From Escherichia coli (GTDB lineage: Bacteria > Pseudomonadota > Gammaproteobacteria > Enterobacterales > Enterobacteriaceae), in assembly GCF_003334355.1 (NCBI RefSeq), contig NZ_QOWP01000062.1: a DNA stretch of 7,912 nt; one strand, 5' to 3'. Position numbers and translations under genes: made by a program. Shown in pieces: positions 3,346 to 7,912 of the stretch. The notes beneath the pieces were generated by a model that saw only the letters and a list, made by a program, of their open reading frames with translations, did not search any database and had not been told where the DNA came from. Numbering within the stretch: the stretch's first letter is position 1; each line of letters opens with the position of its first letter.

Positions 3346-4689
3346 TTAAAGCAAACCACAGCGACGTTTACTGCGTTCTTCCGCTTCCTGATAAAGCTGG
3401 AACTCATCCAAAACCGGACAACCCAACGCCTGCTCAAATGCTTCGCGACTGGCATTACCGTGATTGCGTGCCTGCGTTTCATTACCCAGATTTGACTGGA
3501 AGATCCCCGCCGCGCTAACGGGCAAGAAATCTTCATAGGTAATGGGTTGCGCCGCGACCCAACCACGTTCAATTAAGGGCTGTGGATCGTCTCCGGGATG
3601 AATCGCCTGACGATGCGCCTCACCCGAAGGCGTCAGACGGTACCGGAACCATGCCAGCCCTTGCTGACGCATTAAAAACTCACTGTCAGGAAAAGTGCGG
3701 AAGGTTTCCTGTAAATGCATTTGGTGAGTGAGATTATCCTGCCCGGTTCCAGCGTTACGCAGAAGATCATCATACAGTTGTCGCCCTTTCGGCGTTAATG
3801 CCACGCCACGCTGCTCAATTTCACCAAAGCGCGCAGTATGCGTGCCCTGTTTCTGCCCCGCAAACAACACCGTCTCTTCCAGTGCTTTAAAGCTGGTCTG
3901 GCGTAGTAAAATCGGTACCTCGCGGCGCGGCGGCCCTTCGATCAGAATTTTTGGTTCAATTCCGCATTCAGGCATCATCGACTGCACCCGGTCAATATCC
4001 AGCGTACGTGGCGTCAGATGGTTGATATGGCATCCAGGAAAACAGACCACATCAGCAATCAACCGATGTTCGTTGTGCAAGGCGCGATAGGTTTCTTCAT
4101 CTACCGTTGCTGACTGGTGCCAGCGAAACGTTTCCAGGGCTTCCTGCACAAACTCCTGTGCCTGTGTTTCGTTAAAACCGCCCCGCTGCTCATATTCCTC
4201 TAACAGTAGTCGACAACGTGGGGTGAAGATATCGCGCTGACGTAGAATCTCCGCCGCTTTCTGGCGCAAAATTTCGTTCTCGATAAGCTCAAGGCGGAGT
4301 AACGAGGTAAAAACGCGGAAGGGATTACGCGCCAGAGAAGCATCATCAATGGGCCGAAATGCTGTCGAATGTACCGGCACCCCCGCCTGCGAGAGATCGT
4401 AATAGCTCACCGGGTACATCCCCATAATGGCAAACATCCGCCGAAGAGTAGCAAGCTCTTGTGCAGTCCCAACGCGAATCGCCCCATGACGTTCAACATT
4501 CAGTCGCGCCAGCTCGTCTGCATTTACCATTTTTTCGTGCAGTTGAGGATTGTTTTCCAGCACAGCCAGATTCACATCAGCTACCAGTTCCAGCAGCGTG
4601 CCGTACTGCGGAACTTCTTGCTGGTACATGGCTGACATTGCCTGCGAAAACTGTTCCCGAATCTCATCCGCCGTGATGCTGTTCGCCAT
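3346..4689 (-). CDS. ydcJ: DUF1338-family metalloprotein YdcJ (family includes HglS-type 2-oxoadipate dioxygenase/decarboxylase)
   Basis: 447-aa ORF with ATG start (rc of 4687-4689) preceded by a GGAGG Shine-Dalgarno 8 nt upstream. Stop TAA at 3346-3348. Sequence MANSITADEIREQF... matches my recollection of E. coli YdcJ. The enzymatic assignment is by family membership only. Confidence 0.88.
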   Translation of the reverse strand: MANSITADEIREQFSQAMSAMYQQEVPQYGTLLELVADVNLAVLENNPQLHEKMVNADELARLNVERHGAIRVGTAQELATLRRMFAIMGMYPVSYYDLSQAGVPVHSTAFRPIDDASLARNPFRVFTSLLRLELIENEILRQKAAEILRQRDIFTPRCRLLLEEYEQRGGFNETQAQEFVQEALETFRWHQSATVDEETYRALHNEHRLIADVVCFPGCHINHLTPRTLDIDRVQSMMPECGIEPKILIEGPPRREVPILLRQTSFKALEETVLFAGQKQGTHTARFGEIEQRGVALTPKGRQLYDDLLRNAGTGQDNLTHQMHLQETFRTFPDSEFLMRQQGLAWFRYRLTPSGEAHRQAIHPGDDPQPLIERGWVAAQPITYEDFLPVSAAGIFQSNLGNETQARNHGNASREAFEQALGCPVLDEFQLYQEAEERSKRRCGLL

Positions 4690-4905
4690 ATTGTCTGCCT
4701 CCAGTGGTCAGTAATCTGGAGTGTAGGTAACCGCATTCACTCTGGCGGGAAGAATTTACAAACTGTGATCTCGCCGCGAAAACATCAATATTATCCATTT
4801 TGCTGTAACATGATTGCTTTAATTGTTAATAATATTTTGCAATCAAGTTATCATAATCAAACAACTTCACTTGTCAGCGACACCGCTTCGTTTTTAACAT
4901 CGCTT
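4690..4905. promoter_or_regulatory. Divergent ydcJ/ydcI intergenic control region with AT-rich core and an imperfect palindrome
   Basis: 216-nt gap between divergent starts. Strongly AT-rich 4800-4860. ATTGTTAATAAT (4822-4833) is a 10/12 palindrome of the T-N11-A type expected for LysR-type regulator binding. Several weak -10-like hexamers (TAATAA/TAATAT 4827-4835). Confidence 0.4.
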
Positions 4906-5829
4906 ATGGAAAAAAATAGTCTGTTTAGTCAGCGCATCCGTTTGCGCCACCTTCATACATTCGTAGCTGTCGCACAACAAGGAACTTTGGGGCGCGCGGC
5001 TGAAACCCTTAATTTGAGTCAACCTGCGCTCTCTAAGACATTGAATGAACTGGAGCAGCTGACTGGCGCTCGCTTGTTTGAGCGTGGTCGTCAGGGGGCG
5101 CAACTTACCTTACCCGGCGAACAATTTTTAACGCATGCAGTCAGAGTTCTTGACGCCATCAACACTGCCGGACGGTCGCTTCATCGTAAAGAAGGTCTTA
5201 ATAATGATGTCGTCAGGGTTGGTGCACTACCTACTGCGGCACTGGGGATATTACCTTCGGTTATAGGTCAGTTTCATCAGCAACAAAAAGAGACGACCTT
5301 GCAAGTTGCGACAATGAGTAACCCTATGATTCTGGCGGGTTTAAAAACCGGGGAAATCGATATCGGCATTGGTCGGATGTCAGATCCTGAACTGATGACC
5401 GGGCTTAATTACGAACTGCTGTTTCTTGAATCGTTGAAGCTGGTTGTCCGCCCTAATCACCCGCTACTTCAGGAGAACGTAACGCTAAGCCGGGTGCTGG
5501 AATGGCCGGTCGTTGTATCACCAGAAGGCACTGCGCCACGCCAGCATTCAGATGCATTAGTGCAGAGCCAGGGCTGTAAAATTCCTTCGGGTTGTATCGA
5601 AACGCTGTCTGCTTCGCTATCTCGTCAACTTACGGTTGAATACGATTACGTGTGGTTTGTCCCTTCTGGCGCTGTAAAAGACGACCTGCGTCATGCCACG
5701 CTGGTGGCCCTGCCTGTTCCGGGACATGGTGCAGGCGAACCGATTGGAATACTGACCCGCGTAGATGCGACGTTCTCTTCTGGTTGCCAGTTGATGATTA
5801 ACGCTATTCGAAAATCAATGCCGTTCTGA
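4906..5829 (+). CDS. ydcI: LysR-type transcriptional regulator YdcI (307 aa)
   Basis: Although the frame is open from 4765, the ATG at 4906 (MEKNSLFSQRIRLRHLHTFVAVAQQGTLGRAAETLNLSQPALSKTL...) puts the helix-turn-helix at the extreme N-terminus as in LysR-type regulators and gives the 307-aa length I recall. Stop TGA at 5827-5829. Confidence 0.88.
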   Translation: MEKNSLFSQRIRLRHLHTFVAVAQQGTLGRAAETLNLSQPALSKTLNELEQLTGARLFERGRQGAQLTLPGEQFLTHAVRVLDAINTAGRSLHRKEGLNNDVVRVGALPTAALGILPSVIGQFHQQQKETTLQVATMSNPMILAGLKTGEIDIGIGRMSDPELMTGLNYELLFLESLKLVVRPNHPLLQENVTLSRVLEWPVVVSPEGTAPRQHSDALVQSQGCKIPSGCIETLSASLSRQLTVEYDYVWFVPSGAVKDDLRHATLVALPVPGHGAGEPIGILTRVDATFSSGCQLMINAIRKSMPF

Positions 5830-5866: not shown

Positions 5867-7507
5867 TCACACCGTAGCGAAACTAACTGGTTCACCCGCT
5901 CCGCGAGGTTCTGCCGACACAGAATGTTTGTGCAGACGGAATACATCCACCGCCTCAGTTAATCGTGCCGCCTGTTCTTCAAGGGACACCGCCGCCGCTG
6001 AGGCCTCTTCTACCAGAGAAGCATTCTGTTGCGTCACCTTATCCATTTCAGAAATCGCCTGGCTAACCTGCGTTATGCCTCTACTTTGTTCATCCGAGGC
6101 GGCGGCGATTTCCTGCATGATATGTGTGACACTCGCGACGGCATCAACAATAGTGCTCATGGTTTTCCCGGCCGTTGCCACCTCATCCGACCCCAGGTCA
6201 ATTAACCTGACTGATTCACTGATCAAGCCTTCAATCTCTTTCGCCGCCTGAGCGCTGCGACTTGCGAGTGTCCGTACTTCGCTGGCGACAACGGCAAATC
6301 CACGCCCTTGCTCACCCGCTCGCGCGGCTTCAACGGCAGCATTCAGTGCCAGAATATTCGTCTGGAAAGCAATACTGTTGATGACGGCGGTGATCTCAGA
6401 AATTTTCTTCGAACTCGTGGAGATAGCGCCCATCGTTTTTACTACACCGGAAACCGTCTGCCCGCCATCGCTGGCTTTAATAGAAGCCTCTTGCGCCAGT
6501 TTGCTGGCATGATGCGCGTTATCCGCATTCTGTTTCACCGTCGCAGTGAGTTGCTCCATGCTGGCGGCAGTTTGTTCGATAGCCGCCGCTTATTCTTCGG
6601 TGCGAGATGACAGGTCCGCATTGCCAGCTGAAATTTCGCTGGTGCCACGATAAATCTCTTCCGCGCCCTGTCGAACAGTCCCTACTGTCATCCCCAGTGA
6701 ATGCTGCATTTGCTGTAAATGACGACTTAAGCGACCGATTTCATTACGACCCGCCGGTTCATCATTCATCGTCAGATCGCCACTGGCGATTTTTTCAATC
6801 CGTTGTGCGGCATGTTGCAGTGGACGAATGACGATCCGACGTAGCACCATAAATGTTATCAGCGTCATGACCAGGGCAAGCACAAACGCGCCAATCATGA
6901 ACATCCCACCCAGGCGGGTGCGCTGATGGGCCAGTTCCGCCAGTTGGTTGGCTCTGGTGCTACGTATCTTAACGGCTTTGTTCAAAATATCGGTATAAGC
7001 ATTATCCAGCGGTCGGATCTGCTCACTTTCATGATTGATAATCGCTTCAAACATGCCATTTTTGGCATATTTCAACATAGGTTGCATACCCGTGATATAA
7101 GCCTGAAAGCGTTGATTTAATTCAGTGTCGAGGGCTTCATCAGCAGGTGTTTTCACCGGTCGATTCTGATAAGCACGATAACCTTGCTGCGACTGTTTAA
7201 TCTCCGATTCGGCTTGCGCAATATTTCGCTTCATTGCTTCCATTTCCGCAATACGACTCGCAGCCCCGGCCTGAATCATATTGATCCGGGCTGAACGCAA
7301 AAAATCTGAACTGTTCGCTAACCCGGTCCGAATCTCAATCTCCGCAGTAACATCACGCTGATCGCGATCGGCCTGCCAGAGGAAATAGCCAGCCAGAGCA
7401 GAACTTAATGCGAATAGAACTAAGATACCGCCAAGAATGCAGGCAAATAACGGAACCAGCCTGATGTGATGCAAAAAACCTAATCGATGTGAGGGAGTTG
7501 TATTCAT
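5867..7507 (-). pseudogene. trg: Methyl-accepting chemotaxis protein III (ribose/galactose chemoreceptor) with an in-frame premature TAA at codon 306
   Basis: Track ORFs 6590..7507 (305 aa, MNTTPSHRLGF...) and 5867..6559 (230 aa) are in the same frame. The first ends SSRTEE-TAA (plus 6590-6592); the 10 intervening codons read [10 protein letters not shown], then [15 protein letters not shown]... continues into the conserved signalling domain. 305 + 1 + 10 + 230 = 546 codons, the full length I recall for Trg. Confidence 0.8.
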
Positions 7508-7753: not shown

Positions 7754-7799
7754 GCCTGCGGGTGCCTGAGACTTTCTGTTTTCAGGCTAACCGGGAATC

Positions 7800-7853
7800 A
7801 GAAAGACGAAGGCCCCGACCGATATTTCTATCAACTGTACTGCACCCATTTTG
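7800..7853 (-). ncRNA. sokB: Putative Sok-type antisense RNA (sokB-like); ends approximate
   Basis: Transcript predicted from the strong minus-strand promoter at 7861-7889. It is antisense to the toxin mRNA leader just upstream of the putative mokB start. The complementary plus-strand leader (CAGAAAGACGAAGGCCCCG) resembles the R1 hok leader I recall. The 3' end is not defined by a clear terminator. Confidence 0.4.
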
Positions 7854-7860
7854 TTGGACG

Positions 7861-7889
7861 ATGAAATGGAATAGCCCCTAATATGTCAA
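7861..7889 (-). promoter_or_regulatory. Near-consensus sigma70 promoter on the minus strand (antisense/Sok promoter)
   Basis: Minus strand reads TTGACA (plus 7884-7889), a 17-nt spacer, then TTTCAT (plus 7861-7866). The -35 is a perfect consensus, the spacing is optimal and the -10 is 4/6. The -35 overlaps the plus-strand ATG at 7883. Confidence 0.5.
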
Positions 7890-7912
7890 AGCCAAAATAC
7901 CCTTTTGAAAAG
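7883..7912 (+). CDS. mokB: 5' end of putative mokB-like reading frame (hok/sok family modulator ORF), truncated by the window edge
   Basis: ATG at 7883 opens MSKPKYPFEK..., which runs off the window. It starts like R1 Mok (MSSPHQ..., from memory) and sits where the antisense promoter overlaps. No Shine-Dalgarno is visible. The Hok toxin ORF would lie beyond 7912. Confidence 0.3.
   Translation, partial: MSKPKYPFEK

Follow-up and report, generated by a model that had tools for sequence, protein, structure and literature searches.

In the 7,912-nucleotide (nt) stretch of Escherichia coli DNA analysed here (contig NZ_QOWP01000062.1; hereafter the window), ydcJ, named hglS in RefSeq, and the LysR-type regulator gene ydcI diverge from a shared 216-nt gap at 4690-4905. 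From this layout, a sequence-only reading of the DNA had predicted that YdcI controls ydcJ in response to a small-molecule effector. Comparison with related genera points to a different history: the divergent hglS-ydcI promoter region is probably what a deletion left behind, and YdcI a PcaQ-type regulator without an operon of its own. Judging from gene presence on a tree, the ancestral order in the Enterobacteriaceae would have been hglS leftward and pcaH-pcaG-ydcI rightward. Ancestral YdcI would have been a PcaQ-type regulator of protocatechuate 3,4-dioxygenase, binding a cATAACC-N3-GGTTATg dyad in the hglS-pcaH spacer. Alignments show that a deletion in Escherichia then took pcaHG, the pcaH promoter and the dyad, which makes the adjacency of ydcJ and ydcI secondary and the layout a poor guide to the target.

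pcaHG lies between ydcJ and ydcI in most genera sampled

Taking one genome per species, we collected 63 Enterobacteriaceae loci that encode proteins 75-97% identical to YdcI. ydcJ is located upstream of and divergent from ydcI in nearly all 63, and in most of the genera sampled pcaH and pcaG stand between the two. The ydcJ-ydcI interval measures 1.8-2.7 kilobases (kb) in Raoultella, Kluyvera, Buttiauxella, Pseudocitrobacter, Dryocola, the Citrobacter amalonaticus/sedlakii group, some Cedecea and some 'Enterobacter', and holds two plus-strand genes, pcaH (365 bits, cutoff 296) and pcaG (264 bits, cutoff 126), which according to curated models encode the beta and alpha subunits, respectively, of protocatechuate 3,4-dioxygenase. 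Klebsiella has hglS leftward, followed by pcaH, pcaG and ydcI rightward. The adjacency to pcaHG expected of a PcaQ regulator is thus found for YdcI orthologues of 76-88% identity (Klebsiella, Raoultella, Kluyvera, Buttiauxella and others). It extends to a relative of 55% identity, with the order pcaH-pcaG-regulator, pcaC and pcaB alongside and no hglS gene, and to one of 45% identity, which is divergent from pcaHG and also without an hglS gene. There is, by contrast, no pcaHG in the window, and 5426 E. coli genomes yielded only four matches, of 70% identity and at another chromosomal locus; these four strains are probably engineered, and natural E. coli has no pcaHG.

In a neighbour-joining tree, pcaHG-bearing lineages occupy all deep branches and pcaHG-less lineages are nested in at least six places, which makes recurrent loss by far the more parsimonious account when set against recurrent insertion at a single site. 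Relics bear this out: pcaHG is gone from Kosakonia, Enterobacter sp. ENT03 and the Cedecea neteri clade, all of which still have the dyad described below, and Cedecea neteri additionally retains part of the pcaH promoter. No Salmonella locus was present among the 63 scanned loci or among the best 120 protein matches.

Other rearrangements are visible around the same genes. In the Citrobacter amalonaticus/sedlakii group (L007-L009, L043, L058), a ppaC-like gene for a manganese-dependent inorganic pyrophosphatase (293 bits, cutoff 283) is inserted between pcaG and ydcI and divergent from the latter, and Citrobacter koseri (L057) has kept ppaC and lost pcaHG, with an apparently frameshifted ydcI. 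In Klebsiella (L065, 2541-6232), genes for a carboxylesterase and an isochorismatase-family hydrolase, absent from E. coli, follow hglS on the same strand; together with the adjacent pcaHG, these neighbours hint at a possible function of enterobacterial HglS in the metabolism of aromatic esters or aromatic acids.

A PcaQ-type dyad marks the ydcJ-pcaH spacer and is missing from the E. coli ydcJ-ydcI spacer

The ydcJ-pcaH spacer of 31 of the 32 pcaHG-bearing loci contains the dyad cATA(A/G)C(C/T)-N3-(G)G(T/C)TAT(g/t), which spans 15 base pairs (bp) and has the consensus cATAACC-N3-GGTTATg. Its arms are invariant, its centre is free, and T2 and A14 make up a T-N11-A pattern. From the dyad centre it is 117-146 nt to the ydcJ ATG and 98-122 nt to the pcaH ATG (157 nt in L058). 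We built a 17-position weight matrix from 29 such spacer boxes of other genera, which themselves score 15.7-25.6 bits. The 55%-identical homologue has CATAACCTTAGGTTAAG upstream of its pcaH (19.3 bits), and the PcaQ site of Sinorhizobium meliloti is quoted as ATAaccgggggatTAT, centred at -65.5 (PMC5002191). In the three pcaHG-less lineages named above, the dyad scores 15.7-18.5 bits, again with invariant arms and a variable centre, and is found 124-131 nt from the ydcJ ATG and 174-251 nt from ydcI. That the dyad stays fixed relative to ydcJ even after loss of pcaHG fits an ancestral regulatory link between YdcI and ydcJ, and by the same token enterobacterial HglS may belong to the PcaQ regulon, with a role tied to aromatic-acid catabolism beyond lysine catabolism.

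On the E. coli spacer, the matrix peaks at 0.2 bits, a value that 56-58% of shuffles equal or exceed. The shared-spacer regulator dyad of a classical divergent LysR pair, expected about 65 nt before the transcription start of the target and overlapping the promoter of the regulator, is therefore absent from 4690-4905 and present in the relatives, where its position corresponds to just past the E. coli junction (see below). Two elements of the sequence-only reading, a LysR T-N11-A dyad in the shared region and control of ydcJ by YdcI, accordingly hold for other genomes than the one they were proposed for: the dyad is real in the relatives and was lost with the Escherichia deletion, and the regulatory link is probably true of the ancestral state and of dyad-keeping relatives. 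Given a spacer without dyad, E. coli ydcJ would most likely be transcribed from its conserved proximal promoter, free of direct canonical activation by YdcI; such direct control is unlikely in E. coli and plausible in relatives that keep the box.

The matrix also gives dyad-like matches outside the spacer. One of them, TATAACCGAAGGTAATA inside the ydcI coding sequence (5249-5265, 12.1 bits), was considered and dropped: the site ranges from -15 to 16 bits across genera, with 10-16 bits in Buttiauxella and negative scores in most genera, fits the number of hits that chance would give over 15.8 thousand positions, and is probably due to chance. Another match, CATAGCCATACGTTGTT, lies in ydcK (125-141, 15.2 bits).

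The E. coli spacer joins two conserved segments

The gap falls into three parts. The first, the ydcJ-proximal segment of about 93 nt (4690-4782, minus strand), holds the ydcJ ribosome-binding site and proximal promoter elements, and its positions 4692-4782 align locally with the first 91 nt of the ydcJ-pcaH spacer of Citrobacter sedlakii. The last, at 4802-4905 (plus strand), holds the ydcI promoter, possible operator remnants and a 5' leader without Shine-Dalgarno sequence; its counterpart in C. sedlakii, where ppaC is the upstream gene, is the 104 nt directly preceding ydcI, and it also aligns with the pcaG-ydcI gaps of Raoultella and Klebsiella and with the sequence ahead of ydcI in Citrobacter. 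Between them, the 19 nt at 4783-4801 align to neither ancestral segment and differ even between Escherichia species. Two homology blocks and an unconserved joint imply that the deletion began just short of the dyad, took in the pcaH promoter and pcaHG, and ended some 100 nt before ydcI, which would have fused the hglS-proximal to the ydcI-proximal piece at this junction.

On the ydcJ side, conservation was assessed in 52 orthologues. Read in the ydcJ sense, the conserved blocks are GGAG at 4702-4699 (ribosome-binding site GGAG(G)), CTAC at 4726-4723 as a part of TAC(n)CT at 4725-4720, AAATTCTT at 4757-4750 and GATCACA at 4770-4764. From its conservation, TACACT (4720-4725, minus strand) is a candidate -10 hexamer for ydcJ: it reads TACACT, TACTCT or TACGCT across genera, with T1, A2 and T6 invariant and a variable middle. 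No conserved -35 hexamer accompanies it in the ydcJ-side spacer of these orthologues. TAAATT (4758-4753) is a further candidate on this side. We discarded a hairpin (CUCCAG...CUGGAG) by which the ydcJ leader would hide its Shine-Dalgarno sequence (RNAalifold -1.35 kcal/mol, four pairs, zero compensatory changes), and an Rfam scan of the ydcJ-ydcI spacer returned no known RNA family.

On the ydcI side, 55 orthologues were compared. TGTTAA (4824-4829) and TTTGC (4836-4840) are 100% conserved, and TGT (4804-4806), GTTATCA (4847-4853), CTTGTCA (4870-4876) and GTTTTTAACATC (4890-4901) at least 91% conserved. This block of about 100 nt is conserved whether the upstream gene is ydcJ, pcaG or ppaC. 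A consensus scan predicts a sigma-70 promoter for ydcI at 4826-4854 (plus strand), with TTAATA (4826-4831) and TATCAT (4849-4854) separated by 17 nt. The same hexamers are listed for ydcI by genomic SELEX (systematic evolution of ligands by exponential enrichment) with RpoD holoenzyme (PMC3946193), and GTTAA and TATCA are invariant in the 55 orthologues. The best consensus match in the region (10/12) is a predicted leftward promoter at 4850-4877 (minus strand), CTGACA-16-TATGAT, which is listed for ydcJ in the same study and whose -10 overlaps the predicted ydcI -10. In pcaHG-bearing genera it would read into the 3' end of pcaG and thus cannot be the ancestral ydcJ promoter; it could be a distal ydcJ promoter specific to Escherichia.

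YdcI as a PcaQ-family regulator and its targets in E. coli

A cluster representative 99% identical to YdcI carries Pfam PF00126 (HTH_1) and PF03466 (LysR_substrate), and 53 LysR-family NCBIfam models match YdcI. The best of these is TIGR02424, PcaQ, at 287 bits, with the next family at 136 bits. E. coli YdcI does not reach the PcaQ equivalog cutoff of 303.8 bits; its orthologues score 280-310 bits, and of 13 pcaHG-linked ones ten fall just below the cutoff (295-300 bits) and three pass (305-310 bits), so the cutoff misses most of the enterobacterial clade. Orthologues with and without linked pcaHG have median scores of 298.9 and 293.3 bits (P = 0.003, kinship ignored), a shift of about 6 bits that we judged too weak to signal decay of the regulator once pcaHG was lost. 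Among solved structures, those nearest in sequence are CatM/BenM of Acinetobacter baylyi (2h98 and 2h99; E = 1e-28 and 3e-21). No paper joining ydcI with pcaQ turned up in the literature searched; neither the genes nor the LysR family nor PcaQ is new, and the placement of YdcI as an orphan PcaQ with a defined box appears to be undiscussed there.

Does the E. coli protein still read the ancestral box? According to Gao et al. 2018, ChIP-exo (chromatin immunoprecipitation with exonuclease digestion) gave 18 YdcI sites, with gltP, nhaA, lldP, gltA, yobA and dtpA as named targets and a regulon described as proton symporters plus gltA. Upstream of these six genes in K-12, the matrix reaches maxima of 20.8 (gltP), 11.5 (nhaA), 10.4 (lldP), 9.2 (gltA), 9.0 (yobA) and 7.7 bits (dtpA), whereas 16 control intergenic regions from the same stretches stay at or below 6.2 bits, a complete separation (Mann-Whitney P = 2e-4). 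In addition, wherever the pcaHG-linked orthologues have an invariant site in the DNA-binding domain, E. coli YdcI has the same residue. Recovery of the ChIP-exo targets and an unchanged DNA-binding domain together argue that PcaQ-type specificity has been kept: most likely E. coli YdcI still recognises PcaQ-type boxes, and has none in its own spacer. The gltP upstream region (K-12, L071 5255-5300) has two boxes 29 nt apart, CATAACAAATGGTTATT (20.8 bits) and CATAAACTCGCGTTATT (13.5 bits), a spacing that resembles the recognition-site plus activation-site layout of LysR promoters. By sequence, they are the best candidate YdcI operator in E. coli.

The palindrome and the AT-rich core

The sequence-only reading had singled out an imperfect palindrome, ATTGTTAATAAT at 4822-4833, in the shared AT-rich control region. 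Its coordinates and its 10/12 self-complementary positions are exact, and no other 12-mer of the spacer reaches 10. When the spacer is shuffled with its dinucleotides preserved, however, the mean is 1.2 such 12-mers, and 71% of the shuffled sequences contain one or more. Nor does T-N11-A discriminate, as the pattern occurs 20 times on the plus strand of the spacer alone. The symmetry is also not kept in evolution: of the 55 orthologous promoters, 80% have A at position 4823, which reduces the match to 8/12, and the invariant part of the region is the asymmetric TGTTAA. We therefore rejected ATTGTTAATAAT as an operator. Since it overlaps TGTTAA and the predicted ydcI -35, and sits in the ydcI-proximal block that is conserved whichever gene is the neighbour, consensus, conservation and the published RNA polymerase SELEX make it a presumptive piece of ydcI's own core promoter, not a shared element.

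Other repeats were considered as well. The left arm of the inverted repeat TAACATGATTGC / GCAATCAAGTTA (4806-4817 / 4839-4850, 11/12) is unconserved outside Escherichia, with positions 4807-4817 only 31-89% conserved, and we treat the repeat as lineage-specific or chance. The inverted pair TGTTAATAA / TTTTTAACA (4824-4832 / 4891-4899) has invariant cores but is 58 nt apart, too wide for a single LysR tetramer. There is also a direct repeat, GTCAGCGACACCGCTT in the ydcI leader (4873-4888) and GTCAGCGCATCCGTTT in the early ydcI coding sequence (4928-4943), with a 12/16 match over a distance of 55 nt.

The core could nevertheless be read by YdcI in another way, through the palindrome or a TGTTAA...TTTGC...GTTATCA array, with control of ydcI and ydcJ together, given that their promoters in E. 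coli face away from each other and overlap at 4849-4855. We consider this unlikely. What speaks for such an arrangement is the invariance of 4824-4853 in the 55 orthologues, including promoter-spacer positions that a plain promoter would leave free, but the block is equally conserved where ydcJ sits 1.8-2.7 kb off behind pcaHG, so its selection cannot be for control of ydcJ. GTTAT and GTTAA do resemble the right half-site of the dyad, and one clade has a full box with TGTTAAT as right arm; in Escherichia, however, the left arm is degenerate and no dyad stands out from the 0.2-bit matrix peak. The overlapping TATCAT/TATGAT -10 elements, with the leftward promoter as the best consensus match, would couple the two genes, yet the main text of Gao et al. 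2018 names neither ydcJ nor ydcI among the targets, and the palindrome itself neither rises above chance nor keeps its symmetry among orthologues. Under the deletion history preferred here, any autoregulation by YdcI would need to work through TGTTAA and GTTATCA, the degenerate half-sites that lie around the ydcI promoter.

A second alternative, which we regard as improbable as a full account, gives the spacer to factors other than YdcI: H-NS silencing the AT-rich core, and CRP (TGTGATC) or RpoS acting on both genes. The core has 29-31% G+C across 4750-4899, confirming the AT-richness noted by the sequence-only reading, and PMC3946193 records H-NS in the ydcJ-ydcI spacer as well as binding of RNA polymerase holoenzyme alone in genomic SELEX. 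GATCACA (4770-4764) is at least 98% conserved in the 52 orthologues, resembles a CRP half-site and precedes the transcription start that TACACT would predict by about 51-57 nt; on the other hand, E. coli has no second half-site (CGCGA where the consensus has TCACA), the distance to the putative start misses the class I position by about 3 nt, and no experiments in the literature consulted tie CRP or RpoS to the ydcJ or ydcI promoters. Under severe acid stress, YdcI is regulated in translation while ydcI mRNA stays constant, as seen by ribosome profiling (PMC10746267). These influences are compatible with a deletion origin of the spacer and do not exclude it. Regarding translation, ydcI has no recognisable Shine-Dalgarno sequence, and the 12 nt GTTTTTAACATC conserved just before its start are a candidate element for the translational control under acid stress.

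Several points weigh against our interpretation of the spacer as a remnant free of YdcI control. The tree behind the gain and loss argument was built from YdcI and YdcJ themselves and is not a species phylogeny, and the comparison with ChIP-exo data covers six named targets and uses controls that are not length-matched. Salmonella YdcI reportedly gel-shifts its own promoter fragment and autoregulates, and the conserved block at 4802-4905 may hold a non-canonical YdcI site. In the pcaHG-less Cedecea neteri/davisae clade (L031, L036, L038, L041), a second full box, CATAGCTAAATGTTAAT (3909-3925, 12.6-14.2 bits), is present at the ydcI promoter. Its right arm is TGTTAAT, invariant in all genera (window 4824-4830), which suggests that the invariant TGTTAA hexamer is a remnant autoregulatory half-site. 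Since CTGACA-16-TATGAT overlaps the ydcI -10, anything bound there could affect both genes. Finally, with six targets named in the main text of Gao et al. 2018 against 18 sites in total, YdcI may bind within the spacer in vivo.

The effector domain diverges where pcaHG has been lost

In 30 pcaHG-linked YdcI orthologues, 201 sites are invariant. At 23 of them, seven pcaHG-less clades have accumulated 41 changes, all of which lie outside residues 1-82, the DNA-binding domain (P about 6e-5). E. coli has L85I, N138S, T140P, L142I, S148T, K207E, N214H, A215S, E216D, T273G and L297M. T273 is replaced in six of the seven clades, by five different residues, K207 in four (E or Q) and G97 in four (D or E). 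The corresponding ydcI codons 97, 207 and 273 (5194-5196, 5524-5526 and 5722-5724, plus strand) have thus been replaced independently, and the three residues appear coupled to pcaHG presence, making them candidate effector contacts. In an alignment with CatM/BenM, YdcI 138-140 and 213-216 match residues that we take to line the muconate pocket. The confinement of the changes to positions outside the DNA-binding domain suggests a relaxation or retuning of effector recognition once pcaHG was gone. The effectors proposed earlier, 2-oxoadipate and 2-hydroxyglutarate, derive from the neighbouring gene; family membership and the ancestral pcaHG point instead to protocatechuate-pathway metabolites (protocatechuate, beta-carboxy-cis,cis-muconate or gamma-carboxymuconolactone) as candidates, with the caveat that the effector domain of E. 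coli YdcI has diverged.

Genes and other features of the window

The window comes from the E. coli chromosome: over 2.6 kb it matches strain E41 at 100% identity, and 5418 of 5426 complete E. coli genomes contain this segment. Its gene order is ydcK', rimL, ydcH, opgD, hglS (ydcJ), ydcI and trg. Open reading frames, NCBIfam scores and RefSeq all agree with the earlier gene identities, the divergent orientation and the 216-nt gap, which is identical to the K-12 spacer (NC_000913.3 1,495,072-1,495,287) at 213 of 216 positions. hglS (3346-4689, minus strand) encodes a 447-residue Fe(II)-dependent 2-oxoadipate dioxygenase/decarboxylase. YdcJ scores 740 bits on the HglS equivalog model NF049974 (cutoff 550), its Klebsiella orthologue carries Pfam PF07063 (DUF1338), and both results support the DUF1338/HglS assignment made from sequence; in vitro, E. 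coli YdcJ turns 2-oxoadipate into 2-hydroxyglutarate (PMC7286885). ydcI (4906-5829, plus strand) encodes a 307-residue LysR-type regulator of the PcaQ orthogroup, and its ATG at 4906 is backed by the invariant ATGGAAAAA and by indels just upstream in the 55 orthologues. Further downstream, trg (5867-7507), for a methyl-accepting chemotaxis protein, is split into two open reading frames of 230 and 305 codons; in the identical strain E41, RefSeq lists it as a pseudogene with an internal stop, with an IS150 element just beyond. A sok antitoxin RNA match in Rfam (7760-7912; 72.4 bits, gathering score 59) indicates that the hokB/mokB/sokB toxin-antitoxin locus adjoins trg, as in K-12.

Implications and comparison with known systems

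For the locus as first described, the outcome is mostly deflationary, with an ordinary palindrome and a YdcI-ydcJ circuit that is probably not intact in E. coli. It also carries a warning for annotation, as a divergent LysR-neighbour pair can arise by deletion and the neighbour need not be the target. For YdcI, we tentatively entertain, at somewhat less than even odds, a more constructive reading as an orphaned PcaQ that kept its specificity, was recruited to boxes at gltP, nhaA, lldP, gltA and other genes, and had its effector domain remodelled (K207, T273, N138-T140, N214-E216). If true, a protein studied in pH homeostasis and experimental evolution would gain a definite origin and an effector hypothesis that can be tested. 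During long-term starvation and in acetate evolution experiments, ydcI repeatedly acquires loss-of-function or missense mutations. Links have been drawn to persistence (contested) and to tolerance of acid and alkali, and the persistence literature calls the YdcI signal unknown. Placement in the PcaQ family would offer an operator, cATAACC-N3-GGTTATg, that predicts known in vivo targets, along with a short ligand list and specific residues.

Three characterised regulators are instructive here. HgcR of Pseudomonas putida (PP_4494) is a LysR activator that senses D-2-hydroxyglutarate, the product of the HglS reaction, and thereby resembles the earlier effector proposal; however, it adjoins a D-2-hydroxyglutarate dehydrogenase gene and not hglS, YdcI belongs to the PcaQ orthogroup, and nothing in this analysis ties YdcI to 2-hydroxyglutarate. 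CatM and BenM, also of the LysR type, control pathways of aromatic ring cleavage in response to an intermediate of the muconate type, but they share only about 30% sequence similarity with YdcI and have another operator and another operon. PcaQ itself, known from Agrobacterium tumefaciens, S. meliloti and Cupriavidus necator H16, where it serves pcaHG or pcaDCHGB, is the best-scoring family for YdcI. It is a LysR activator that represses its own synthesis and uses an ATAACC...GGTTAT-type dyad operator, and enterobacterial YdcI orthologues have such a dyad upstream of pcaH. Differences exist at two levels. Within the Enterobacteriaceae, pcaH-pcaG-regulator is co-directional with hglS as the divergent partner, whereas classical pcaQ is divergent from its operon, and the dyad spans 15 bp (ATA-N9-TAT) compared with the 16 bp quoted for S. 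meliloti. In E. coli, the YdcI locus has lost both pcaHG and the dyad, and the protein falls below the curated cutoff, is changed at 11 effector-domain sites and serves a regulon of proton symporters and gltA.

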